DNA from: a virus
DNA length: 64,000 nucleotides
Reading direction: 5' to 3' (one strand)
IMG/VR virus record: IMGVR_UViG_3300024999_000083
Positions 18,601 to 60,013 of this stretch are shown here, in pieces. A program made the position numbers and the translations under genes. Below the pieces are notes generated by a model, which was given only the letters and a program-made list of their open reading frames with translations, was not told the origin of the DNA and did not search any database. Numbering within the stretch: the first letter of the stretch is position 1; every line of letters starts with the position of its first letter.

Positions 18601-18911
18601 AAAAATATAATAAATATATAACTCCTTTTGAAGATGTTGATGAAGGAAAAGAATCAGTCTTAGTTGGAGTAATCGCAAGTGTACAGAAAAAAATGGATAA
18701 ACACAAGAAACAATTTGCATTTTTAGATATTTACCAAAATGGAGATTTAATCGAAGTTATATGTTGGCACACACAATTTAAAGACTATGTAAATGAATTA
18801 GTAAGAGGGAGGGTTGTAGTTATTTTAGGTAAAAAGAGTGAAGGTAAGGTTGTTCTGAAGGAAGTAATTTCATTAGAACAGTGGAAGAATAGGAGAGAAA
18901 TTAAAGAATGA
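15696..18911 (+). CDS. dnaE: DNA polymerase III alpha subunit (DnaE-type, N-terminal PHP domain)
   Basis: PHP motif HVHSYYSLLDGL...ALTDHG; 1071 aa; polymerase core regions; stop overlaps the next start (ATGA). Confidence 0.85.
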   Translation: MTRPEHRTDLHVHSYYSLLDGLPSPTDIIKNAVSKGMKSIALTDHGFLGGMAEFFLQAKKNNIKPIYGVEVYETSDTLNKDKDNRYYHLLVLCKNNNAMKELNKVVKRSTQEENFYYKPRIEIDWLIPFADDLIIGTACLNGRINKINREEKIEFINKMKSIFKSFYIELQSHETEDQITCNKELLEMSILTNTPIIITTDAHMLNEEDLELHGRFKSIVMNSKKTPDEIGEAYRDCYIQTVDDIYKKMSYLPEEVINEGVINSNLIADICNVEMDFYNIKFPEIDIPPQYKNIRQFIESRVNEGWKEREYYLKSQERQQEAKERIKYELDVIDAKGYLDYFAIVDDFLIYNKEQGYLPPKGRGSAGGSSVAYFMMIHDIDPLDYDLLFERFLNPDPKDTHIPDIDIDFCHTVRQDVVDYCIRKYGNSQVCNIGLYSYMKAKTAIKDVGKSLEVPFFATNEISKTLSDDTKLSEYIEEGKHQKWIDKYSKFQIKEMFEIGAKLQGIPKSFGSHPSGKIISNMILEEAMGMAVIDGENVCMYDMHYVEDLGFIKFDFLGLKTNTTIYDTLKLIGKDSKFIETARLNFNDDKVYEQFRLGNTSGIFQFSSYSMREVLSKMKVDCIEDLIAANALFRPGAMDYIDAFCHNKQHPEDIKYVNDSLSDILKVTYGQLVYQEQMMAVGKMANVPSVDDLRRACGKKKIDLMKEQEVFLKEGLINKGWQQKEVDIIWDQMVKFGSYAFNKSHSASYAIIAYITMYLKVYYPAEFMTSLLNAYSNDNQLISKYIAEAQRMGLKVKTPNINKSEKNFTVDDGSILFGLKNLKDCGEVFVTKLLEERGRDPFKNFTDFYTRSKPDKPSVVSLIKAGAFGVKNREQFLLKFIESLFETKEYTPVISPPTKKVLKEQWGIEADNKEDRLKYYNAKRKILFDEEQIVKHENHVQELKEKYMSNPEMWEYDIMSMFITYNPLEKYNKYITPFEDVDEGKESVLVGVIASVQKKMDKHKKQFAFLDIYQNGDLIEVICWHTQFKDYVNELVRGRVVVILGKKSEGKVVLKEVISLEQWKNRREIKE

Positions 18912-21355
18912 TAGAATTGGAATCATCTAAAGAACTAGAAGAAAAGAAACCTGATTTAGACAAAATATATGAGTTTGTAGCAACTATTACATATTCAATA
19001 TATTACGATCAACAAAGAAATTTTGGTATATATGAGTTTACAACAGATAGTAAATTGCCATATACTAACGATTATATATACAGAGATAAAACTAGATACT
19101 TAGGTTGTTTAAGTGGAAATATGCAAGAATTATATTGTGAAACTGATTATAAGGTTGTCGCTAAACTAAAATATAATAAGAAATATAAAAAATATGATTA
19201 TTTTATTGAAAGTGTCTTTAGTGAGCAACCAAAAACACCAAATGAACAAAGAAAATTTCTAGAGGTTTTATGTACTAAAAGGCAAGCAGATATAATACTA
19301 GAATCTTATCCAAACATTATTGAAGACGTAATGACTGGAAAACATATTGATACTTCAAAATTTAAAGGAATAGGAGATAAAACATTTCAACCAATTAAAG
19401 ATAAAATATTAGAGAATTACATTATTCAAGATATTGTTGTTTTATTAAGACCTTTAGGTGTTACATTTAATACTATTAAAAAGATGTTAGGAGTTGAAGA
19501 TAATCCATCATTGCTTAAACAAAAAATAATGGAAAATCCTTATATACTGACATCTGTTCATGGGTTAGGGTTTAAAAAAGTAGATGAATTAGCCTTAAAA
19601 TTAAACCCTGATTTAAAATCAAGTTTACAAAGAACAAAGGCATTTCTATTCTATATATTTAAAGAAATTGCAAGTTCTGAAGGTCATACGTGGATTAGTA
19701 AAAGGGATTTGATTGGTTATGTGAGAAAGGATTTAAGAGAATGTATTGACATTTATAAAGACTTTATTGAACAAGAGACTGAAGATCCAATGTTGCTTTA
19801 TATTTATGATGAGAAGATTGGCCTATTAAAATACTACAATACAGCTAAAAATATTGTTGAAAGTTTATTTTGGTTAGATAGTTTAGAAAGTATGATAGAA
19901 CCTTTTACAGAAGACGAAATGGATGAATCTATAAAACAAACTGAAAAAGAATTGGGTTTTGAGTTCACTTTAGAACAGAAAAATGCTATTAAAAGTATTA
20001 ATGAACATAACGTAATAATAGTTACAGCTCCAGCAGGGGCCGGAAAATCAGTATCAATTAAAGGAATCTTCGACCTACTTACAAGAGCAAAAGTAAAAGA
20101 TAAATTTATAAGTAGCGAATATAATCAAATACATTCAGAAGATATAATGGGAAACGATGAATTTTCTACTAGTAATGAATTATGTCAAGGATTGTATGGA
20201 GATATATCTGTAATTGATGATCATTCAGTAATTAAGGTTGGTCAATCTGCTTTATCGGCAAAGGCAGCTAAAAGAATGAAAGAAGCATCAGGTGGACAAC
20301 AAGCGATGACAATGCATAGAATGCTAGGTTTTGGTGGAAATAATGGAGATGGTGGAAAGGGAGGATTTGCGTTTAAAAAGGATTTCCCAATGAAGTATCA
20401 TGTTAATGTACTTGACGAGGTTAGTTTAGTTAACAAGTCTTTAATTAATAGTTATATTAATGCAATACGACCACATAGTAAATTAGTATTAATATTTGAC
20501 TTTGCACAATTGCCACCCATCGGATCAGGAGATTTTACAAGAGATATTTTGAAAAGTAAATTATGTATTAATAAATTCACTAAAGTCCATAGGCAAGGCG
20601 AAAAAAGTGGTATATTAATGGACGCTAACAAAATAAGAGTTGGTATTAATCCAATAGAAAAATTAGAAAAGAAAATAGTTCATGGAGAATTAAGAGATAT
20701 GTTTTACAGATTTGAAACAGATAAAGAAAAAATGAGGGATATGGCGGTTGATGCCTATCTTAAATCTGTAGAAGATGTTGGTTTAGAGGAAGCAGTTATT
20801 ATCACTCCAAGAAAACGTAAATGTATTAATAGTGCTACTGAACTGAATAAGATCATACAAGATAAATTGATCCCTTATGGGGTAAAAAGTTTGACAAGGT
20901 GGAAAGATGGAGAACAATGTATTTTTAAACTTGGTGCAAAAGTTATGCAAAAGAAAAATAATTATGATAAGGATAAGATGGTTTTTAATGGCGATGAAGG
21001 TTATATAACCGATATTGATAAAAATGGTTTTACTATAAGTTTTACTCTTGAAAATGGTAAAAGAGAAGTTATTTATACTAATAGTGAATTAGACCAAATT
21101 GAATTATCATATGCTAACACAATTCATAGTGTTCAAGGATCTCAATTCCACTCAGTAATTTGTGTCTTTGATTCAAGTAGTTTTATAATGTTAAATCGCA
21201 AAATATTGTATACCGCAATTACTAGAGCAAGAAAGAAATGTATGCTTATTAGTGAACCAAGGGCTTTTAAAGTATGCTTAGACGATGAAAACAATAAACC
21301 ACGAAATACATTTTTAAGTGAAATGTTTGAGGTATATAATGAAGAAAGGAAGTAA
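18908..21355 (+). CDS. RecD-like SF1 DNA helicase (AAA_30/UvrD_C_2)
   Basis: Walker A VTAPAGAGKS; Walker B LDEVS; motif VI-like SVQGSQF...YTAITRARKKCML. Confidence 0.8.
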   Translation: MIELESSKELEEKKPDLDKIYEFVATITYSIYYDQQRNFGIYEFTTDSKLPYTNDYIYRDKTRYLGCLSGNMQELYCETDYKVVAKLKYNKKYKKYDYFIESVFSEQPKTPNEQRKFLEVLCTKRQADIILESYPNIIEDVMTGKHIDTSKFKGIGDKTFQPIKDKILENYIIQDIVVLLRPLGVTFNTIKKMLGVEDNPSLLKQKIMENPYILTSVHGLGFKKVDELALKLNPDLKSSLQRTKAFLFYIFKEIASSEGHTWISKRDLIGYVRKDLRECIDIYKDFIEQETEDPMLLYIYDEKIGLLKYYNTAKNIVESLFWLDSLESMIEPFTEDEMDESIKQTEKELGFEFTLEQKNAIKSINEHNVIIVTAPAGAGKSVSIKGIFDLLTRAKVKDKFISSEYNQIHSEDIMGNDEFSTSNELCQGLYGDISVIDDHSVIKVGQSALSAKAAKRMKEASGGQQAMTMHRMLGFGGNNGDGGKGGFAFKKDFPMKYHVNVLDEVSLVNKSLINSYINAIRPHSKLVLIFDFAQLPPIGSGDFTRDILKSKLCINKFTKVHRQGEKSGILMDANKIRVGINPIEKLEKKIVHGELRDMFYRFETDKEKMRDMAVDAYLKSVEDVGLEEAVIITPRKRKCINSATELNKIIQDKLIPYGVKSLTRWKDGEQCIFKLGAKVMQKKNNYDKDKMVFNGDEGYITDIDKNGFTISFTLENGKREVIYTNSELDQIELSYANTIHSVQGSQFHSVICVFDSSSFIMLNRKILYTAITRARKKCMLISEPRAFKVCLDDENNKPRNTFLSEMFEVYNEERK

Positions 21356-22100
21356 ATTACCATTTATTAATAGAGTGTGTGATGTTTGTGGAGAAGATAA
21401 GGAATCAGGATTTAAGATACATTTTTGTAAAGAAGTGAATATGTATCTATGTAATAAACATTATCAACAAATAAAATTATATGGAATGATAAAGCATAGA
21501 ACTAGAAAAGATTTAAATGAGATAATTATATACGATACATATGCTGAAATTATTTTGTATGACTTGGAAAATAAAGAAAAGTGCAGAGCAACTATTGACA
21601 TTGAGGAAATTGATAAAATTAAAGTTTATAAGTGGTCTGAGATGGGGAGTGGATATGTAACAGCAACGTATTACAAAGGAGATATGAAAACTGGAATATT
21701 ATTACATAGATTAATAATGGGACTAGATGATGAAAAAGATTTTGATCATATTGACGGAAATAGAAAAGATTGTCGAAAACAAAATTTAAGACCAGCGAGT
21801 AGTTTAGACAATGGCAAGAATAGATTGAAAACAAATACTAATACTTCTGGTTTCATAGGTGTATCTTGGAGTAAGGTAAAAGATATGTGGAGAAGTTATA
21901 TTCAAGTGGATTATAAACAAAAGCATTTAGGTTATTTCGATTCTATTAAGGAAGCAACATTTGAAAGAATTAAAGCAGAAATGAAATATTATAAGCAATA
22001 TAGAAACTTGTATAATGAAAATGAGTATATAAAAGTTTATGGGGAAGAAGATATAGTTAACCTAAAGCAAGAATTGTTACTATATAAAACCAATAAATAA
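21339..22100 (+). CDS. HNH homing endonuclease with AP2 DNA-binding domain
   Basis: HIDGNRKDCRKQNLR (HNH_3-like) then FIGVSW...WRSYI...KHLGYFDSIKEA (AP2-like); GAGGT RBS; start overlaps the helicase 3' end. Confidence 0.6.
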   Translation: MKKGSKLPFINRVCDVCGEDKESGFKIHFCKEVNMYLCNKHYQQIKLYGMIKHRTRKDLNEIIIYDTYAEIILYDLENKEKCRATIDIEEIDKIKVYKWSEMGSGYVTATYYKGDMKTGILLHRLIMGLDDEKDFDHIDGNRKDCRKQNLRPASSLDNGKNRLKTNTNTSGFIGVSWSKVKDMWRSYIQVDYKQKHLGYFDSIKEATFERIKAEMKYYKQYRNLYNENEYIKVYGEEDIVNLKQELLLYKTNK

Positions 22101-23435: not shown

Positions 23436-23517
23436 ATTCTTAGGATAAAAGAAGATATTGATGGGATAATGGGATGTAATAATAAATATTAAAATAATTA
23501 TATTGGAGGATACATAA

Positions 23518-25806
23518 TTGAAAGTACAAAAAAGAAATAGCACATTGGTTGACTTTGATAAAAATAGTATCATTCGAGCAATTGAAAAAGCTATGCTTGA
23601 AACAAAAGAAGGAATTGATACTAAACTAAGTCATGATATTGCAAATAAAATTGAGTCTATTGGATTAGAAGTATACTCAGTTGAAAATATTCAAGATTTT
23701 GTGGAAGATATTTTAATGGAAAGCAATAGAAAGGATGTAGCAAAGAGATATATTATCTATCGCAATCAAAGAGATAAGGTTCGCAAAAACAAAGTAAAAG
23801 GACTTCTTAGTGAAGAGTTTATAAGCAAATATAAACATTTACCTTCACCAATGAATCAATTAGGAAGTTTTGTTTATTATCGTACATATAGTAGATGGCT
23901 TCCAGATGAACAAAGAAGAGAATATTGGTGGGAAACTGTAAAAAGAGCAGTGGAATATAATTGCAGTTTAGTTCCAACTTCTAAAGAAGAAGCAGAAAAA
24001 CTATATGATAATATTTATAATCTTAGGCAGTTTTTATCAGGTAGAACATTTTGGGTAGGAGGAACACAAGTAGCTTATAAGTATCCCTGTTCCAACTTCA
24101 ATTGTGCCTTCATTATTATTAATAGTATTAAATCATTTGAAGAATTATTTTATTTGCTTATGGTAGGAACAGGTGTTGGAGTAAGAGTTTTAAAAGCAGA
24201 TGTAGATAAATTACCTAAAATTAAAAATAATATTGATATTATACATAAAGAATACAATCCTTTACCTAAAGATGGTAGAGAAGACTACACTTCTTTAAAA
24301 TTTAAAAAAGATATTGCTACTATAATTATGGGTGATTCTAAAGAAGGTTGGAGTAAGGCACTATATTATTATCTAGAATTACTAACCAACAGTTATTATG
24401 AAAATATTAAATTAATTGTTTTGGATTATGATAATGTTAGACCAAAAGGAGAGAGACTAAAAACATTTGGTGGAACTGCTTCTGGACACGAAAGTATAAA
24501 GAATATGTTTAAAAAAATACATACTATAGTTAAAGATTCAAATAAAAAATTAAGCACGTTAAATTGTTTAGATATTGCTAATATAATTGGTGAAAACGTG
24601 GTTGTTGGTGGAGTAAGAAGGACAGCGGAGAACGGTCTTATTGACCATGATGATGATGAATCAATAAATGCAAAAAATAACTTATATATACAATCAGAAG
24701 GACAATGGATCGAAAATAAAGAAATATCTCATAGGAAAATGAGTAATAATTCAATTTTTTATACTGAAAAACCAACTAGAGAAAAATTGCATTGGCAAAT
24801 AGAGAAAATGAGATATTCAGGAGAACCAGCATTTGCTAATGCAGAAGCAGCATCCAAACGAAGAGTTAATTTTGAAGGACTTAACCCTTGTTTTGAGGTT
24901 TTATTGCAATCAAAAGGACTATGTAATTTAATTACATCCAATGTAATGAGCTTTGTCTTTAATGGAAAATTAAATATAGAAATGCTTTTAGAAGCGCAAA
25001 AATTAGCCGTAAGAGCAGGATACAGAATGACTTGTGTAGATTTAGAGTTACATGAATGGGATTTAGTTCAAAAGGAAGATAGGTTGTTAGGTTGCTCATT
25101 AACTGGTTGGCAGGATATGGTTAACGCAACTAATATGTCTTTACAAGAACAAAAAGAGACATTGATAAAACTCAAAGATGTTGCCATAGAAGAATCAAAA
25201 AAATATTCATCTCAATTAAATATGAAAGAACCATTATTGGTTACTACCGTGAAACCAGAAGGAACTTTGAGTTTATTACCCGGAGTATCTAGTGGAGTAC
25301 ATTATTCTCACTCGCCATTCTACATTAGAAGAATTAGAATTAATTCAGATGATCCTTTAGTAAAAGTTTGTGAAGAATTAAGTTATCCAGTTTTTGATGA
25401 TGGTATAAATACAAAAGTAATTGAATTCCCTGTAAAGTCTCCTAAAGGAAAAACTAAATATGATGTATCTGCAATTGAACAATTAGGAATATATAAAATG
25501 TTTCAAGAATGTTATGTACAACATAATACTAGCATTACCATTCATGTTAGAGAGAATGAATGGGATGAAGTTGAACAATGGTTATGGGACAATTGGGATG
25601 ATGTGATTGGAGTGTCATTCTTATCTTTAAGTGATAGTTTTTATCATTTAATGCCATATGAAACAATTACAGAAGAAGAATATAATAAAAGAGTTAAGGA
25701 AATGAATCCATTTATTCCATCATTGCTTTCAAAATATGAAAAAGAAGAAGTTGAACTAGATATTGGTAATGATGGATGTTCTTCTGGTTTATGTCCCATA
25801 CGCTAA
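23518..25806 (+). CDS. ribonucleotide reductase large subunit with N-terminal ATP-cone (class I/II-like active site NPCFE; class not resolved)
   Basis: ATP-cone KVQKRNSTLVDFDKNSIIRAIEKA; active-site finger NPCFEV; C-terminal Cys pair GCSSGLC; no NrdB seen. Confidence 0.75.
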   Translation: MKVQKRNSTLVDFDKNSIIRAIEKAMLETKEGIDTKLSHDIANKIESIGLEVYSVENIQDFVEDILMESNRKDVAKRYIIYRNQRDKVRKNKVKGLLSEEFISKYKHLPSPMNQLGSFVYYRTYSRWLPDEQRREYWWETVKRAVEYNCSLVPTSKEEAEKLYDNIYNLRQFLSGRTFWVGGTQVAYKYPCSNFNCAFIIINSIKSFEELFYLLMVGTGVGVRVLKADVDKLPKIKNNIDIIHKEYNPLPKDGREDYTSLKFKKDIATIIMGDSKEGWSKALYYYLELLTNSYYENIKLIVLDYDNVRPKGERLKTFGGTASGHESIKNMFKKIHTIVKDSNKKLSTLNCLDIANIIGENVVVGGVRRTAENGLIDHDDDESINAKNNLYIQSEGQWIENKEISHRKMSNNSIFYTEKPTREKLHWQIEKMRYSGEPAFANAEAASKRRVNFEGLNPCFEVLLQSKGLCNLITSNVMSFVFNGKLNIEMLLEAQKLAVRAGYRMTCVDLELHEWDLVQKEDRLLGCSLTGWQDMVNATNMSLQEQKETLIKLKDVAIEESKKYSSQLNMKEPLLVTTVKPEGTLSLLPGVSSGVHYSHSPFYIRRIRINSDDPLVKVCEELSYPVFDDGINTKVIEFPVKSPKGKTKYDVSAIEQLGIYKMFQECYVQHNTSITIHVRENEWDEVEQWLWDNWDDVIGVSFLSLSDSFYHLMPYETITEEEYNKRVKEMNPFIPSLLSKYEKEEVELDIGNDGCSSGLCPIR

Positions 25807-25840
25807 GATAAAATAAATAATAAAGTGAGGTAATTAATAA

Positions 25841-26356
25841 ATGAAAATAAGAGGTTTTGAAAGAATTTCAAAAGAGCAGTACGACAAAGATATCAAAGAA
25901 GAAATATTAAATAAATATTCACTCGATAACTGCTACATACACGAAGAAATCAAATTACCAAAACGTGCAACTGCACTATCTGCTGGATATGATGTTTTTA
26001 GTACACTGGAATTTCAATTGCTACCTAATGATGAAATTAAACTACCTACAGGTATTAAATCATATATGCAAAATGATGAAGTTTTAAAAGCATATCCAAG
26101 AAGTAGTTTAGGGTTTAAGTATTATCTTAGATTTGCAAATACTATTCCAGTAATTGATGCTGATTATATCTTTAGTAAAAATGAAGGTCATATTTGGATT
26201 AAGTTAAGAAATGAAGGTGAAAAAGTTTTGTCAATTAAAAAAGGTGAAGCAATTTGTCAGTTCATTTTTGAGAAATGCTTATTGGCAGATAGAGATAGTT
26301 ATGAAGGAGAAAAGCGTGATGGAGGAATTGGTAGTACAAATAAAGGAAGGGCTTAA
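25841..26356 (+). CDS. dut: dUTP diphosphatase (dUTPase)
   Basis: All five dUTPase motifs: SAGYDVFS, YPRSSLG, VIDADY, ICQFIF, RDGGIGSTNKG. Confidence 0.85.
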   Translation: MKIRGFERISKEQYDKDIKEEILNKYSLDNCYIHEEIKLPKRATALSAGYDVFSTLEFQLLPNDEIKLPTGIKSYMQNDEVLKAYPRSSLGFKYYLRFANTIPVIDADYIFSKNEGHIWIKLRNEGEKVLSIKKGEAICQFIFEKCLLADRDSYEGEKRDGGIGSTNKGRA

Positions 26357-27299
26357 TTGCCTTTCCTACCTCAAACACAAAGGAGTGATACAATACTTGA
26401 AATTATTAGAAAAAATCCATTCCAAAACTGACAACACAATTAAATACATATTCATGACACAAGATAATCTAATTATCGAATTATCATACATAAATAAAAA
26501 TGATGGTAAAGATATTATCTGTGTTCCTTCACAAACTTCTTGTAAAATGAAATGTAAATTCTGCCACATTACTGATGCTACAGATAAATTAATTAATAGA
26601 AATCTTACAGCACAAGAAATTAAAGAAGCAGTAGATAATGTCTATAATAACTTAAATTTATCACTTAATCCCAAATCATTACTAATATCTTATATGGGAT
26701 GTGGTGAACCGCTACTAAACTACAAATATATAAAAGATAGTATGGTATTACTCAGAAATGAATATCAAACCACAAAAGTTCCATTAATTAGATTTGCTAT
26801 AGCAACATCATTACCTGAATTTGCATGGATTAACTTCTTTAACTTAACCAATGAAATACATAAAGAAAAACTACCAGTAAAAATACATCTATCTTTACAT
26901 TACACTATTGATTCTATACGAAAAGATTGGATGCCTAACTCCTTATCAATTTTACCATCATTGGTTGCATTAGAATATTATAAGAAAATTACTAATAATT
27001 CAGTTGAGATTCATTACACTTTAATTGATGGAGTCAACGACACTGAACGAGATGCAATTAGATTGAGTGAGTTTTTAAAATATCGAGATATTCCAGTTAA
27101 ATTCTTATTCTATAATGAAAAACCAAGTATTGAATTTCATGCGAGTTCAAAAGAAAAATTGAATTTATTTAAGAGATATTTTGATAAGTATGATATTGAA
27201 TATGAGTATTATATCCCTCCAGGTCTTGATGTGGGAGCTAGTTGTGGTCAATTTTTGATGGATTATTACTTAAAGTATAATCTTATTAGAGCAAAATAA
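26319..27299 (+). CDS. RlmN/Cfr-family radical SAM RNA methyltransferase
   Basis: CVPSQTSCKMKCKFCHIT (CxxxCxxC with the upstream Cys, as in RlmN CVSSQVGCALECKFC); MGCGEPLLN; C-terminal ASCGQF matching the RlmN ACGQL Cys; start 26319 has an AAGGAG RBS. Confidence 0.7.
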   Translation: MEELVVQIKEGLNCLSYLKHKGVIQYLKLLEKIHSKTDNTIKYIFMTQDNLIIELSYINKNDGKDIICVPSQTSCKMKCKFCHITDATDKLINRNLTAQEIKEAVDNVYNNLNLSLNPKSLLISYMGCGEPLLNYKYIKDSMVLLRNEYQTTKVPLIRFAIATSLPEFAWINFFNLTNEIHKEKLPVKIHLSLHYTIDSIRKDWMPNSLSILPSLVALEYYKKITNNSVEIHYTLIDGVNDTERDAIRLSEFLKYRDIPVKFLFYNEKPSIEFHASSKEKLNLFKRYFDKYDIEYEYYIPPGLDVGASCGQFLMDYYLKYNLIRAK

Positions 27300-27337
27300 A
27301 ATAAACATTTTCTCGTATTTTAAGAAAGGAATAAGCA

Positions 27338-27484
27338 TATGTATTTTATTTTAGAGGTTTATATAGATGTAGACTCTGAAGAAGATGCTAAAGACATAGC
27401 ACATGATATTCATGAAATATTAGGAGACAATGGAATAACCAATAGTGTTAATGTAATAAATGATGAAAACGACGAAGCAAAATA
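27338..27484 (+). CDS. small acidic hypothetical protein
   Basis: AAAGGA RBS, ATG 27338. Confidence 0.3.
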
Positions 27485-27501
27485 AAGAAGGAGAAAATAT
27501 A

Positions 27502-27729
27502 ATGAAAACATTAAACAGACAAAAATCAGAAGAGTTATTCAATGAAATAAGAAGCATCGAATTTTCGGTAAATCATCTTGGAGCATATGTTCAAAATCCA
27601 GACTTCGTAAATGAAGAAAATGTATATCAAGATTATAATAGTTTTGATAATAAGTTCTCAAAAGTTATTGAACGGTTAAAAAATGTAAGGACAGAATTAT
27701 ATAAGTTATATGCAGAAGTTTTAAATTAG
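27502..27729 (+). CDS. hypothetical protein
   Basis: AAGGAG RBS before ATG 27502. Confidence 0.45.
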   Translation: MKTLNRQKSEELFNEIRSIEFSVNHLGAYVQNPDFVNEENVYQDYNSFDNKFSKVIERLKNVRTELYKLYAEVLN

Positions 27730-27799
27730 AATAAAAATTGAGTTAGCTACTCGTTTCTTACCCTTCATGATATTTAGATTTAGAAAGGAGTAAATAAAA

Positions 27800-27961
27800 A
27801 TGGCATATTTAGCTTATGGAATGGCATGGGTATCTACAGCTATAGCAACTTCAGTTGGGATTTATTATACAAAAGATGCAGACTGTCTTTGGGCAATGTT
27901 AATTCCTGCAATGATTAGTATAAGTTTTGGTGGTAAAGACAAGACAAATAATAAAGCATAG
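27800..27961 (+). CDS. small membrane protein (53 aa)
   Basis: AAAGGAG RBS; two hydrophobic segments. Confidence 0.35.
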   Translation: MAYLAYGMAWVSTAIATSVGIYYTKDADCLWAMLIPAMISISFGGKDKTNNKA

Positions 27962-27983
27962 AAATAAAAAGGAGATATTAAAA

Positions 27984-28322
27984 ATGCAAACATCCTACTA
28001 TGCAAAATACAAAGGTGAAAATGCTGTATCAATTGCAGGTAAATGTCCAACTTGGTATAAAGGTAGAGAATATAAAAAGTTAGCCCCTAATTATTGGTTC
28101 TTTAAGAGATACAAAGAAGATGGTGATAAACAATTCTATACTGAACAATATCAAAAAGAAATTCTTGATAAATTAGATCCACAACAAGTATATGAAGAAC
28201 TTGGTAAAGATGCTGTATTGCTCTGTTGGGAGAAAAGTTCTGACTTCTGCCACAGACATATCGTTTCAAGTTGGTTAATGAAGGAATTAGGAATTGAAAT
28301 TAAAGAATATATTAAGGAGTGA
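27984..28322 (+). CDS. DUF488-like protein
   Basis: AAAGGAG RBS; C-terminal ...SDFCHRHIV... motif typical of DUF488. Confidence 0.4.
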   Translation: MQTSYYAKYKGENAVSIAGKCPTWYKGREYKKLAPNYWFFKRYKEDGDKQFYTEQYQKEILDKLDPQQVYEELGKDAVLLCWEKSSDFCHRHIVSSWLMKELGIEIKEYIKE

Positions 28323-28331
28323 ATCTAAACA

Positions 28332-28871
28332 ATGCATAAAACTATTGTTGTAAATATATTTGGTGGCCCATCGGCAGGTAAATCAACCACTTCAGCAGGA
28401 ATATTTTATGAATTAAAACGCCAAGGCATTCGCTGTGAACTTGTTACTGAATATGCAAAAAGTAAAGTTTGGGAAGAAAGTTTTAAAGTATTAGAAGATC
28501 AAATTTATATTTTTGGTAAACAAAATCATAAAATGTTTACAGTCAAAGGAAAAGTAGATGTTATTATTACAGATTCACCTCTTCTTCTATCTTTATATTA
28601 TGGAAAAGATTTGTCTTCTAGTTTTAAAGGTTTAATTGTTGAAACACATAATACTTATCATAATATGAATTATTTTATCAATAATCTTGGAGAATACGAT
28701 ACTGTTGGTAGAATGCAAACTGAAGAAGAATCTTTAATTATTAGTGGTCATATTTTAGATATTTTGAAAGATGGTGAATTTCCTCATACTGTATTAAATA
28801 AAACTAATCTCGTAGTAGATTTTATTATAGGAGATATTTATAAAGAACTTGCTAAAGTGAAAGGATGTTAA
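28332..28871 (+). CDS. P-loop NTPase (AAA/kinase-like)
   Basis: Walker A GGPSAGKST. Confidence 0.5.
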   Translation: MHKTIVVNIFGGPSAGKSTTSAGIFYELKRQGIRCELVTEYAKSKVWEESFKVLEDQIYIFGKQNHKMFTVKGKVDVIITDSPLLLSLYYGKDLSSSFKGLIVETHNTYHNMNYFINNLGEYDTVGRMQTEEESLIISGHILDILKDGEFPHTVLNKTNLVVDFIIGDIYKELAKVKGC

Positions 28872-28873
28872 AA

Positions 28874-29140
28874 ATGGCAGTTAATGATTCGGTAATGAAT
28901 GTTGCAACAAGAATAAACACAGAAAGAATGCAAACTCAACCAGTAGAAATCCCAATCAAAGTAAAATATAAAAACTATCAAGGAATTACATCAATCAGAA
29001 ATATTATTCCTCAAAATATCTATTATGGTAGCACAGATTACCATAAAGAAGACCAGTGGCTATTAGAAGTTTGGGATATTGAAAAAGATGCTCTGAGAAC
29101 TTATGCAGTAATGGATATTATTGAGTTTATCAGAGATTAA
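28874..29140 (+). CDS. hypothetical protein
   Basis: ORF with AAAGGA RBS. Confidence 0.4.
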   Translation: MAVNDSVMNVATRINTERMQTQPVEIPIKVKYKNYQGITSIRNIIPQNIYYGSTDYHKEDQWLLEVWDIEKDALRTYAVMDIIEFIRD

Positions 29141-29225
29141 TTATAAAACCATAAAATCAACATTGAACTAGCATAATAATTTTTAACAGAAAGGAGGTGA
29201 AATTAAAAGAAAGGAGAAACCATAA

Positions 29226-33534: not shown

Positions 33535-34305
33535 TTGGCAAATAAGATAATTAAAAATTTACCATCAGAAAGAATTGGTGAAGAAAATGTAAATTCATAT
33601 GGATCAACTTTTAAAATCATAGAATATAACAGTTCCAATGATATTCTAGTACAATTTTATGATGGATACAAAAGAAAAGCAAGATATTATAGATTCTTAA
33701 GAGGGGAGGTGAGTAATCCATATGATAAAACTGTTTGTGGAGTAGGGTATTATGGTGAGGTAGACCATACTGAAATTTTTAAACGCAAACAACACCACAG
33801 GTGGATAAATATGATGCATAGATGTTATAACGCAAAAATATATGAAAAATGCCCTAGTTATAAAGGTTGTACTGTATGTAAAGAATGGCATAATTTTCAG
33901 GTGTTTGATAAGTGGTACGAAGAAAATTATTATGAAATTGATGGACAAACAATGGAAGTAGATAAAGACATATTGGTAAAAGGTAATAAAATATACTCAC
34001 CTGAAACTTGTGTATTTGTACCTCACAATATCAACACATTATTTTTAAAAAGCGATGGTAAGCGCGGTGAATTTCCAATTGGAGTAAGTTTGCATAAAAA
34101 ATCAAACACTTATATAGCATCATGCAAAAACAAATTTACAAAAAAAGTAACTATCGGCTATTACCCTACTATAGAATTAGCTTTCAATACATATAAAAAG
34201 TATAAGAAAACAATTATAAAAGAAGTTGCAGACGATTATAAAGATAAAATACCACAAAGATTATATGAAGCTATGTATAAATATGAAGTAGAAATTACTG
34301 ATTAA
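33535..34305 (+). CDS. HNH-type homing endonuclease-like protein
   Basis: Pattern W.NMMHRCYN...Y..C.VC.EW.NF..F..W...NY.E resembling phage HNH endonuclease families. Confidence 0.4.
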   Translation: MANKIIKNLPSERIGEENVNSYGSTFKIIEYNSSNDILVQFYDGYKRKARYYRFLRGEVSNPYDKTVCGVGYYGEVDHTEIFKRKQHHRWINMMHRCYNAKIYEKCPSYKGCTVCKEWHNFQVFDKWYEENYYEIDGQTMEVDKDILVKGNKIYSPETCVFVPHNINTLFLKSDGKRGEFPIGVSLHKKSNTYIASCKNKFTKKVTIGYYPTIELAFNTYKKYKKTIIKEVADDYKDKIPQRLYEAMYKYEVEITD

Positions 34306-58684: not shown

Positions 58685-60013
58685 CTAACTAACCTTCTTA
58701 TCCTTAAACTTACTCATCATCTTCAGTTGCTCCACAATAATACTATCAATCATAGGAATGCTAATATTCTTGGCGGCATTTATATCTGCATTTTCTTCAT
58801 GTCCACATGTAACACACTTAAACTTTGCCTGATTACTCTTACAATCTCTATTAGCATCATCTATACATCCACAATGACTACATCGCTTGCTTGTGTACTT
58901 TGGGTCAATCAAAATAAATTTAATACCCTTTTCTTCACATTTATACTTAGTTTTATTTTGGAGATCAAAATATGACCAATTCTTTAAAAATTTCTCAGAT
59001 TGTTGTTCTGAAAATCCACTTAGATTTTCCATTTGAATAGTTCCACAATTGTATTTTAATGCAGTATCAACTATATTTTTGCTAACTTTATGATTATATG
59101 TATCTCTAAATTTTCCAACTTTGTCTCTCATTTTATCTACTGGTTTTAATCTAACTTTCCTACCATGTCCTATTCTTCCGTTGCCAACTATTTTACTAGC
59201 AATATACATTTGTTTATTTCTTGCTTCAATCTTTTGCCGATAATGTATTAATTCACTACCATTAATTTTGCATTCTTTCCATGATATTCTATCCCATTTT
59301 TCTGTAGAAATATCAAATACTTGCATTGTTGCAGTATTCACAATTCCTAAGTCAACTCCTAATACTTTATTCATATCCAATTGCCTTACGACTGGTTCAA
59401 AACTAAAACTAATTATAAGATACCATTTGCCTCTTTTATCTTCAATAATTTGTGCTGATCCTTGTTTATATATACCTAAGATTATCTTATTTAATATTGA
59501 TTTCCTACTATTGTCCAAACTATCAATAAGAAAACTTACTCGTTTTATATCATTTTCTTTTTGATATTTAAGATTAAATAAACTGCATTTTACTTCGAAC
59601 CCTTTATTTCCTTGAGTTATCGTATAATTCTTATTATGGACAATGAGTGGAATACTCTGTTTAAAATTTGATAATGATACCTGACCTTTAAATAGTCCTT
59701 TTTTAATATCGTCTTTAAATCTATTACTTACAAATTGTCTAGTTTGAGCTACATTGCCACTATTATGTATATTCATAACTTCATTCATTCTGTTCTCTAC
59801 CCAAGATCCATGACTCTTACCATATCTATCTTTTTCATTTATAGTAGTACCATTCATTTGTTTGTGTTCCATATTTTCTACAGCAAAAGTGTAACAATAT
59901 GTTATTGCTTTATTTGAAGCTAACCATGATTGATATCTCAAATCTTTCAGTGTTTGTTTATAATTGCTTATTTCATTACAATTTTTTATTGCGATTTTAA
60001 TACATTTATTCAT
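58685..60013 (-). CDS. cas12f: Cas12f-like (type V-F) miniature RNA-guided nuclease
   Basis: RuvC-I LGVDLGIVN; RuvC-II CGTIQMENLS; Zn finger CSHCG...CVTCG; RuvC-III ENADINAAKNIS; long collinear similarity to AsCas12f1 as I remember it (WYLNISYDFEP/WYLIISFSFEP; GTIQMEDL/GTIQMENL; IDPQYTSQRCSECG/IDPKYTSKRCSHCG); sits next to the CRISPR array. Confidence 0.9.
   Translation of the reverse strand: MNKCIKIAIKNCNEISNYKQTLKDLRYQSWLASNKAITYCYTFAVENMEHKQMNGTTINEKDRYGKSHGSWVENRMNEVMNIHNSGNVAQTRQFVSNRFKDDIKKGLFKGQVSLSNFKQSIPLIVHNKNYTITQGNKGFEVKCSLFNLKYQKENDIKRVSFLIDSLDNSRKSILNKIILGIYKQGSAQIIEDKRGKWYLIISFSFEPVVRQLDMNKVLGVDLGIVNTATMQVFDISTEKWDRISWKECKINGSELIHYRQKIEARNKQMYIASKIVGNGRIGHGRKVRLKPVDKMRDKVGKFRDTYNHKVSKNIVDTALKYNCGTIQMENLSGFSEQQSEKFLKNWSYFDLQNKTKYKCEEKGIKFILIDPKYTSKRCSHCGCIDDANRDCKSNQAKFKCVTCGHEENADINAAKNISIPMIDSIIVEQLKMMSKFKDKKVS

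Follow-up and report, generated by a model that had tools for sequence, protein, structure and literature searches.

A large-phage radical-SAM methylase of the RlmN/Cfr superfamily without the N-terminal RNA-binding domain, possibly acting on a deoxypyrimidine nucleotide

To our knowledge, only two activities are known for the class-A radical-SAM methylases, those of RlmN and Cfr on A2503, with RlmN also modifying tRNA A37, and no class-A enzyme is known to us that takes a free nucleotide or a pyrimidine as its substrate. The described systems closest to the gene studied here are RlmN (E. coli YfgB, PDB 3RFA and 5HR7; Sphaerobacter, 6FZ6) and Cfr/Cfr(D) (PDB 9P0P; cryo-EM complex, PMC13001441). 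In RlmN the catalytic core is preceded by an HhH2 accessory (RNA-binding) domain of about 60-70 aa, and the 349-aa Cfr carries the same domain (PMC13001441); in both enzymes it is the anchor for H91/H92 or the acceptor stem, and Cfr activity falls when it is mutated (PMC13001441, PMC2836569). Phage-encoded proteins of about 300 aa without this domain include gp170 of Tunturiibacter phage Tunturi_5 and gp434 of Pseudomonas phage 201phi2-1 (PHROG 27142, 'Fe-S-cluster redox domain-containing'), and a full-text literature search turned up nothing published on RlmN-like enzymes of phages or on the methylation of dNMPs by radical-SAM enzymes. Thymidylate synthase, of the ThyA (PF00303) or ThyX (PF02511) type, provides a further point of comparison, being usual in phage and bacterial operons between a dUMP-forming enzyme and thymidylate kinase.

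The window analysed here, a 64-kb stretch of viral DNA (64,000 nucleotides), comes from a large phage, and the gene of interest, X, sits in the replication and nucleotide-metabolism module of that phage. The relevant features are as follows:

23518..25806, + strand: class II (adenosylcobalamin-dependent) ribonucleoside-triphosphate reductase with an ATP-cone domain (TIGR02505 RTPR, 371 bits, cut-off 340)
25841..26356, + strand: dUTPase, directly upstream of X (Pfam dUTPase 1.7e-15; NCBIfam dUTP diphosphatase 1.4e-31)
26344..26367, + strand: 9-bp hairpin over the dUTPase stop codon, dUTPase-X spacer (RNA fold)
26380..26385, + strand: ribosome-binding site AAGGAG of X, 11 nt 5' of the TTG, read from the sequence
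26397..27299, + strand: X, coding sequence of an RlmN-like radical-SAM methylase without the N-terminal domain, 300 aa, TTG start
26520..26564, + strand: codons C42..C56 of X, the Cys motif (alignment with E. coli RlmN and Cfr)
26694..26711, + strand: MGCGEP, SAM-binding (GGE-type) motif, X residues 100-105, common to RlmN and Cfr
27240..27254, + strand: SCGQF, in which C283 of X corresponds to RlmN C355 and Cfr C338, the methyl-carrying Cys (alignment)
28332..28871, + strand: thymidylate-kinase-like P-loop kinase, three genes past X (PHROG 2107 'thymidylate kinase', 1.9e-14)

The gene order was thus class II ribonucleotide reductase (RNR), dUTPase, X, two small ORFs and the thymidylate-kinase-like gene, with no terminator-like site between 23000 and 28400. 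The kinase also matched Pfam AAA_28 at 25.3 bits, under the 27-bit cut-off. A search of the 64-kb window for ThyA, ThyX and dCMP deaminase found none of them, and the window contained no tRNA genes or Rfam matches. In contrast to RlmN, the context of X is one of dNTP metabolism and not of housekeeping rRNA or tRNA modification, and the dUTPase is a probable operon partner of X, making dUMP. With RNR and dUTPase (or, at related loci, dCMP deaminase) on one side and a thymidylate-kinase-like gene on the other, X occupies the usual slot of a thymidylate synthase. ThyA and ThyX showed no sequence or fold homology to X in Pfam, NCBIfam and Foldseek comparisons, so that a thymidylate-synthase-like role for X would be one of analogy and not of family membership.

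The first-pass annotation had read the gene as an ORF at 26319-27299 whose start overlapped the end of the dUTPase gene, suggesting co-translation. The gene itself and its end at 27299 were upheld, but the true start is the TTG at 26397, as judged from the N-termini of homologues, more than 100 of which start at M[KN]LLEKIHSK, and from the close relatives L023 and L024, in which the same TTG, AAGGAG and spacing are conserved and in-frame stops lie just upstream. Since the dUTPase stop is at 26356 and X starts 40 nt later, the overlap was an artefact of the over-extended ORF, and without it there is no evidence for translational coupling of the two genes. The hairpin at 26344..26367 had a centroid energy of -15.3 kcal/mol on its own, and the 66-nt segment containing it had an MFE of -16.8 kcal/mol (z -3.2); with no T-run after it the hairpin is not terminator-like, and whether it is part of the X system is uncertain. 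An exact look-up of the X protein sequence found no record, and megablast of 23500-29200 against isolated phages gave no close DNA relatives.

The protein carries CVPSQTSCKMKCKFCH, a C-x6-C-x3-C-x2-C arrangement equivalent to C118/C125/C129/C132 of E. coli RlmN. Within it, C49/C53/C56 form the CX3CX2C [4Fe-4S] motif and C42, seven residues before the cluster motif, is the counterpart of RlmN C118, by which the covalent intermediate is resolved; these positions were invariant in an alignment of 47 family sequences, in which C283 was kept in at least 90% of members. All five catalytic Cys of RlmN and Cfr, together with the SAM motifs, were found in X in a column-for-column alignment, in agreement with the first-pass reading of the extra upstream Cys, of MGCGEPLLN and of SCGQF as the site of the second catalytic Cys. 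The best NCBIfam matches of X were the RlmN and Cfr models, which excludes a chance match, and the Pfam Radical_SAM cut-off was passed (30.3 bits against 29.5). The AlphaFold (AF2) model of X, with a pLDDT of 92.6, matched the RlmN structures 6fz6, 5hr7 and 3rfa in Foldseek with TM 0.78-0.80, and X has the same core fold, Cys motif and GGE-type SAM motif as RlmN, the C-terminal methyl-carrier Cys in an xCGQ loop, and the three-strand beta extension before the core. From these five cysteines and the match of the predicted structure to RlmN, X is, as far as sequence and model can tell, a class-A radical-SAM methyl synthase of the RlmN/Cfr superfamily. The earlier assignment to an RlmN/Cfr-family radical SAM methylase on a mobile element is thereby supported at the level of the superfamily, the element being a large phage.

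Within that superfamily, X is neither RlmN nor Cfr on the sequence comparisons. Against the NCBIfam equivalog models for RlmN it scored 132.8 bits with a cut-off of 290 (TIGR00048) and 94.4 with a cut-off of 633 (NF008396), and against the Cfr models NF000424, TIGR04432 and NF011024 it reached 85.5, 80.5 and 79.8 bits with cut-offs of 530, 550 and 468. The HhH2 domain is wholly absent: the match to the RlmN profile does not begin until position 58 of 355, residue 10 of X is paired with residue 88 in the His-tagged 3RF9 chain (near residue 68 in native RlmN, provided that the 20 aa of extra length are an N-terminal tag), and the AF2 model opens directly with beta strands. The missing N-terminal extension had been taken as a sign that X is nearer to Cfr; as Cfr has the HhH2 domain too, its absence sets X apart from both enzymes. 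By sequence score and fold match X was nearer to RlmN than to Cfr, with PDB phmmer scores of 67-77 bits for RlmN and 49 bits for Cfr and a Foldseek TM of 0.67 to the Cfr structure, and identity in the trimmed alignment was about 25% to RlmN and to Cfr alike (24.5% to Cfr/Cfr(D)). X shares the superfamily and the catalytic Cys pair with Cfr/Cfr(D), but the alpha5/beta6 loop extension was not visible in the X alignment and X was not associated with resistance genes. The pocket is likewise different: at the positions of the Cfr-conserved residues Y97, W101, S103, S151, S153, Q329 and F330 (PMC12887959), X has K34, K38, I40, L96, S98, P274 and P275, a match at one of seven (S98 for Cfr S153), and in the base-proximal pocket X differs from RlmN at nine of the ten positions compared. 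In neighbour-joining trees the short family formed one clade in 88 of 100 bootstraps, RlmN plus Cfr formed a separate clade in 88 of 100, and the short family grouped with Cfr in none of 100, placing X outside the RlmN and Cfr clades.

Judged from its sequence, X is within a distinct subfamily in which the N-terminal RNA-binding domain is absent and the substrate pocket is remodelled. The family comprises at least 104 clusters at 50% identity (E<1e-30), nearly all of whose full-length members measure ~285-310 aa and align from residue 1, with a core of about 285-330 aa that starts at the beta extension, and it is carried by huge phages, Patescibacteria and Firmicutes, including gut Firmicutes. 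It is marked by a signature of L95, L96, S98, K162, H164, E204, H206, K235, Y272, P274, P275, S282 and F286, all present in X; conservation is 71-100% across the phage, CPR, fused and stand-alone groups, whereas RlmN and Cfr differ at these positions. The member GFI47457.1 bears the GenBank name 'methyltransferase Cfr', and JGI pipelines label many other family members as 23S rRNA (adenine2503-C2)-methyltransferase. Outside phages, the nearest relatives (43-50% identity) are chromosomal and single-copy in Patescibacteria; they sit among genes for tRNAs, aminoacyl-tRNA synthetases, PNPase and the CCA enzyme and could be the housekeeping RlmN of those organisms. Among the phage proteins, Tunturi_5 gp170 (40% identity) falls inside the X clade, while the 201phi2-1/D6/Marchewka and Arash/ANB28/Vibrio groups fall into clades of their own further away, at 22-26% identity; several of their genes lie within tRNA clusters, and these two groups may have a different substrate.

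The analysis of homologous loci covered ±10 kb of each contig. Within the window's own clade, genes of deoxynucleotide metabolism adjoined X homologues at several loci: a dCMP deaminase lies directly upstream with a 9-nt gap in L024, where X is 90% identical, and overlaps the start of the homologue in L042, the neighbour is an RNR gene in L003 (80 nt away) and in L063 (45 nt away), a dUTPase is 179 nt away in the L039 group, and thymidylate-kinase-like homologues are nearby in L042 (773 nt) and L025. Across the set, an RNR, dUTPase, dCMP deaminase or ThyX-like gene was present within 3 kb in only 9 of 43 non-redundant locus groups. Genes of dNTP metabolism made up 9 of 150 proteins within 2.5 kb and 2 of 149 at 6-10 kb (Fisher one-sided p = 0.03), a modest enrichment. 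Translation-related genes were not enriched near X homologues, and tRNAs occurred within 10 kb at about a third of related loci in inconsistent positions. There was no universal partner gene, for instance one for an RNA-binding protein standing in for the N-terminal domain, among the 1392 neighbouring ORFs of 60 loci, the commonest neighbour cluster being found at only nine of them.

Fusions also link the family to deoxypyrimidine metabolism. About 45 clusters (90% identity) of 485-517 aa, from Firmicutes, are fused to a dCMP deaminase of the ComEB/DCTD type; a TadA-type (tRNA) deaminase was considered and rejected, as the ComEB/dCMP-type models matched at 1e-12 to 1e-33 compared with about 1e-7 for TadA. 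A triple fusion of 670 aa with dUTPase added was found as an identical sequence in at least 40 contigs, a nucleoside 2-deoxyribosyltransferase domain is joined to one family member, and at L082 the fusion gene, which has a ThyA-family gene and a 5-HMUDK gene next to it, shares an overlap with a thymidylate kinase gene. The fusions that recur come from a subclade in Firmicutes that has only about 30% identity to X and differs from it at K34, K38 and R132; inside X's own subtype the only N-terminal deaminase fusion was a singleton, P0191. ThyA-family or ThyX-like genes co-occur with X homologues at L035/L052, L042 and L082 and in phage Tunturi_5, which weakens the idea of X as a simple stand-in where thymidylate synthase is absent and indicates that X is not simply a thymidylate synthase replacement.

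We infer that the substrate of X is not A2503 of 23S rRNA, and the gene neighbours together with the relatives fused to dCMP deaminase and dUTPase suggest a nucleotide instead. We tentatively favour the reading that X C-methylates a deoxypyrimidine nucleotide, the conversion of dUMP to dTMP being the leading candidate. Because the full RlmN-type catalytic apparatus is kept (C49/C53/C56, the SAM motifs, C283 and C42), the chemistry is very probably the RlmN ping-pong mechanism: one SAM would methylate C283, a second would yield the 5'-dA radical that takes a hydrogen from the S-methyl group, the resulting methylene radical would attack an sp2 carbon of the substrate, and C42 would resolve the covalent adduct, leaving the C-methyl group behind. 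In the operon, the class II RNR would convert NTP to dNTP and the dUTPase would convert dUTP to dUMP, and X would turn the dUMP from its neighbouring enzymes into dTMP for the thymidylate-kinase-like enzyme. Such an X would differ from ThyA and ThyX in being SAM-dependent and folate-independent and in using radical chemistry with two SAM per turnover. That the whole subfamily represents a thymidylate synthase of a third kind, with no evolutionary relation to ThyA or ThyX, methylating C5 of dUMP in Patescibacteria, anaerobic Firmicutes and huge phages, is conceivable but on the whole unlikely; if so, it would also be the first of the class-A radical-SAM methylases with a free nucleotide, and with a pyrimidine, as substrate. 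Radical-SAM methylases are slow and spend two SAM on each methyl group, a poor fit for the bulk dTMP supply of a large AT-rich phage. Several observations stand against the deoxypyrimidine reading, namely the origin of the fusions in a distant subclade, the linkage in only 9 of 43 locus groups, the co-occurrence with ThyA-family or ThyX-like genes, and the tRNA-gene context in Patescibacteria.

The first-pass annotation had offered, as an alternative to Cfr, a methylase of another RNA or nucleotide substrate working with the RNR and dUTPase; the nucleotide option fits the evidence best, and the RNA option is the main rival to it. In that rival, X would be a minimal RNA m2A methyltransferase, an RlmN without the N-terminal domain, that modifies C2 of A37 in tRNAs of the phage or the host and/or 23S A2503 and tunes translation during infection, which we regard as somewhat doubtful. 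RlmN is the closest characterised homologue and its catalytic residues are intact in X, the JGI labels name this activity, and the genes around the Patescibacteria chromosomal copies are of the kind expected for it, as are the distant phage homologues without the N-terminal domain that lie in tRNA clusters, by RtcB or near a CCA-adding enzyme and the Thg1-like, IF3 and PTH2 genes near some homologues. R132 of X may also correspond to R185, the RNA-backbone-binding Arg of Cfr (PMC13001441). Net charge and pI, considered as signs of RNA binding, did not discriminate. However, the loss of the HhH2 domain, a base-proximal pocket so unlike that of RlmN, the window free of tRNA genes and neighbourhoods not enriched in translation-related genes all argue against an RNA substrate, fusions to dCMP deaminase and dUTPase would be senseless for an RNA enzyme, and the family occurs in Firmicutes-like chromosomes, which almost certainly hold a canonical RlmN already.

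A role in DNA modification, whether by C-methylation of a base after replication or of a purine or pyrimidine dNTP that is later incorporated, with an anti-restriction function, appears improbable. We know of no C-methylated DNA base besides thymine and 5-methylcytosine, and the chromosomal copies of Patescibacteria and the LysR-linked copies of Firmicutes point to a metabolic and not an anti-defence role. It would nevertheless agree with X being part of the module for replication and nucleotide metabolism in a large phage, with the DNA methyltransferase genes near some homologues, and with slow chemistry, which would suit partial modification more than bulk synthesis; the L082 cluster, with its ThyA-family gene, 5-HMUDK and kinases, resembles thymidine hypermodification clusters (PMC8989533). 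Least credible by far is the proposal that X is a Cfr-type 23S rRNA A2503 C8-methyltransferase giving the host PhLOPSA resistance, which had headed the first-pass annotation. The superfamily, the catalytic Cys and S98 are common to X and Cfr, but the low model scores, the rank of Cfr below RlmN among PDB matches, the replacement of six of the seven pocket residues (by K, K, I, L, P and P), the missing N-terminal domain and the tree all rule against a resistance determinant of this type, and in tblastn of X against plasmids the cfr genes were only about 25% identical.

As X is no hidden phage cfr, it should not be counted as mobile PhLOPSA resistance. Its family represents a large third branch of class-A radical-SAM methylases in which the RNA-binding domain has been lost and the pocket rebuilt, and which has repeatedly been fused to dCMP deaminase and dUTPase. 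If the family methylates dUMP or some other deoxynucleotide, it would offer a way of making a methylated DNA precursor without folate. Such a route, if true, would bear on the thymidylate supply of folate-poor bacteria with reduced genomes and of their phages, and on their susceptibility to antifolates.

The gene studied here, X, encodes an RlmN-like radical-SAM methylase and lies in phage DNA of about 28% GC whose ORFs, many of them small, run largely along a single strand and include genes for a DnaB-like helicase, a RecJ-like exonuclease, a 1071-aa DNA polymerase, a RecD-like helicase and a terminase. Around 50 kb coding moves to the opposite strand and both GC skew and AT skew reverse sign; this may be a border between modules or a switch linked to replication. 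The relevant features are:

21318-22100, free-standing HNH endonuclease gene, overlapping the RecD-like helicase gene (18908-21355) at that gene's 3' end
26211..27299, ORF enclosing the feature first reported
26344-26367, hairpin of 9 bp with one G-U pair and loop TTAATT
26397..27299, plus strand, X, 300 aa, placed by homologue N-termini and TTG/AAGGAGTGATA conservation
27927-28322, DUF488 protein gene (Pfam 'Active DUF488-N3 subclade', 1.8e-10)
33535-34305, free-standing HNH endonuclease gene
58685-60013, minus strand, transposase-like ORF (matches phrog_506 and phrog_12300, both phage transposase families)

The N-terminus M[KN]LLEKIHSK is shared by more than 100 homologues of 295-305 aa. The two closest viral contigs, L023 (93% identity) and L024 (90%), have the TTG start of X preceded by the same AAGGAGTGATA motif, and in both the frame is closed by stop codons shortly 5' of it; the X gene is therefore placed at TTG 26397. 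The first-pass annotation had proposed an ATG start at 26319 overlapping the dUTPase gene, but the dUTPase stop lies at 26356 and X starts 40 nt later, the reported overlap arising only because the frame happens to stay open upstream. In this spacer, directly 5' of the X ribosome-binding site, the hairpin carries the dUTPase stop TAA inside its loop (centroid -15.3 kcal/mol alone; MFE -16.8 kcal/mol, z -3.2 for a 66-nt segment). With no T-run behind it, the hairpin is no typical terminator, and no terminator-like site was found between 23000 and 28400; it may act in RNA stability or in coupling.

The motifs in the same annotation, in contrast to its start and overlap, proved real and homologous on alignment with E. 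coli RlmN and Cfr. C42-x6-C49-x3-C53-x2-C56 of X aligns with C118/C125/C129/C132 of E. coli RlmN, MGCGEP with the RlmN GGE motif and S-C283-GQF with RlmN C355, and all three also align with their Cfr equivalents. Modelled with AlphaFold from 47 homologues (pLDDT 92.6), X matched E. coli RlmN and the Sphaerobacter RlmN-like structure 6FZ6 with TM 0.78-0.80, and Cfr 9P0P with TM 0.67. X is a class-A radical-SAM methyl synthase, and we infer the RlmN ping-pong mechanism for it with good confidence.

X is nevertheless neither RlmN nor Cfr, being about 25% identical to each. Among NCBIfam models the best score was that of RlmN (TIGR00048, 132.8 bits) and Cfr models came next at 80-85 bits, but all of these scores fall far under the curated cut-offs of 290-633 bits, and the RlmN alignment begins only at profile position 58. 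Both RlmN and Cfr have an HhH2 N-terminal domain, whereas X lacks it entirely and its model opens directly with beta strands. In the Cfr-rRNA cryo-EM structure this domain anchors H91/H92, whose counterparts in the RlmN complex are the acceptor stem and D-arm of the tRNA (PMC13001441), and mutations in it reduce Cfr-mediated resistance (PMC2836569). Cfr orthologues conserve seven pocket residues (Y97, W101, S103, S151, S153, Q329 and F330; PMC12887959), of which X matches S153 only, and X differs from E. coli RlmN at 9 of 10 compared base-proximal positions. In NJ trees of 100 sequences, the short proteins formed one clade and RlmN plus Cfr another, each in 88 of 100 bootstraps, and the short family never grouped with Cfr (0/100).

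A HMMER scan of 1.8 billion representative proteins placed 104 clusters (50% identity) in this short family at E<1e-30, nearly all full-length members being 285-310 aa and aligned from residue 1. They occur on huge-phage contigs (up to 675 kb in IMG/VR, 95-614 kb in NCBI/ENA), some with a terminase nearby; on genuine Patescibacteria chromosomes (43-50% identical to X), beside genes for PNPase, CCA-enzyme, IleRS, ArgRS, TyrRS, DnaK, RecA and MreB; and on Firmicutes-like chromosomes as a form of ~330 aa. In the last setting a LysR-type regulator gene lies ~110 nt upstream in every case (L081, L084, L090/L091), with stand-alone homologues, dCMP deaminase fusions and triple fusions including dUTPase alike, which implies expression regulated by a metabolite. 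All groups share a pocket signature (L95, L96, S98, K162, H164, E204, H206, K235, Y272, P274, P275, S282 and F286) that is absent from RlmN and Cfr. The only cultured phage in the clade is Tunturiibacter phage Tunturi_5 (gp170, 40% identity), and the literature searched contained no published discussion of these proteins.

Homing-endonuclease genes (HNH, NUMOD, LAGLIDADG, RNR/helicase inteins) are among the commonest neighbours of X homologues. The L001/L002 contig has a Cas12f1-like TNB (TnpB-type) gene 2 kb downstream of the homologue, and the 338-kb contig L003 has, about 7 kb upstream of its homologue, a tRNA that reads the UAA stop (anticodon TTA) as part of an 18-gene tRNA cluster; this suggests stop-codon recoding in this huge phage. 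The RlmN-like genes of Pseudomonas phage D6 (L014), Stenotrophomonas phage ANB28 (L020) and Brevundimonas phage Marchewka (L022) also lack the N-terminal domain, are more distant from X, and lie in tRNA clusters, beside RtcB or near CCA-adding enzyme; these clades may be genuine tRNA-modifying enzymes distinct from that of X and are not to be pooled with it.

Clues to the substrate come from fusions and gene order. About 45 clusters (90% identity) of 485-517 aa, some with 167-489 member sequences, carry a dCMP deaminase with GYNGxPxG, HAE and PCxxC motifs C-terminal to the radical-SAM domain; a TadA-like assignment was rejected in favour of a ComEB/DCTD-like one. A 670-aa form adds a dUTPase domain; at least 40 contigs contain this identical sequence, which rules out an assembly artefact. 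In one member the fused domain is instead a nucleoside 2-deoxyribosyltransferase. The two enzymes that make dUMP are dCMP deaminase and dUTPase. The window order of class II ribonucleoside-triphosphate reductase, dUTPase, X, orf89, DUF488 and a thymidylate-kinase-like protein (PHROG 2107, 1.9e-14) reads as a pathway. Within X's own clade, a dCMP deaminase gene lies immediately upstream in L024 (9-nt gap) and overlaps the start of the homologue in L042, and RNR genes of three classes adjoin the homologues in L003, L063, L033, the window and the Patescibacteria loci L070 and L074. Families of dNTP metabolism made up 9 of 150 proteins within 2.5 kb of homologues versus 2 of 149 at 6-10 kb (one-sided p = 0.03), and translation-related families showed no such gradient.

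At L082:5040-12242, from a Lachnospiraceae MAG (GCA_948850955.1), an X-dCMP deaminase fusion named 'methyltransferase Cfr' in GenBank (GFI47457.1) overlaps one of two thymidylate kinase genes and adjoins genes for a ThyA-family protein and a 5-hmdU DNA kinase (HMUDK_hel), with formyltransferase and NRPS-like genes in a cluster that resembles a modified-thymidine pathway. Small proteins of 163-185 aa near other homologues (L025:7753-8244, L032:16890-17447, L048:1986-2531, also L049 and L050) matched the ThyX (Thy1) profile over its C-terminal quarter only, and the L048 representative had no NCBIfam or PHROG match. These and the 518-aa Tunturi_5 gp50, annotated 'thymidylate synthase' but resembling ThyX only weakly (30 bits, cut-off 88), may be a divergent dUMP-binding family.

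The most coherent reading, plausible though short of probable, is that X C-methylates a deoxypyrimidine nucleotide. The first-pass annotation had offered a nucleotide substrate, in concert with RNR and dUTPase, only as an alternative; fusions, neighbours and gene order now make it the best supported. Its favoured interpretation, Cfr-type PhLOPSA resistance, appears very improbable given the sub-cut-off scores, the missing HhH2 domain, the single matching pocket residue and the bootstraps. Modification at the DNA level is also improbable. Where the gene is carried by bacterial chromosomes, a normal metabolite would be expected as product, and since dTMP is the sole C-methylated canonical deoxynucleotide, dTMP is favoured. 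Conversion of dUMP to dTMP would thus be the leading candidate step, and no ThyA, ThyX or dCMP deaminase was detectable within the 64-kb window, but thymidylate synthesis specifically remains a doubtful proposition.

Several serious points weigh against nucleotide methylation. The subclade that holds the recurrent fusions shares only about 30% identity with X and lacks its K34, K38 and R132, and the one fusion inside X's own subtype is a singleton; most loci have no dNTP-metabolism neighbour; ThyA-family or ThyX-like genes co-occur with homologues in several genomes; and radical-SAM methylases are slow and spend two SAM per turnover. The Patescibacteria copies could also be a minimal housekeeping RlmN, and a minimal RNA m2A methylase is a rival to be taken seriously, if on balance an unlikely one. 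X belongs to a large, unstudied subfamily, whose fusions provide a specific and directly testable substrate hypothesis.
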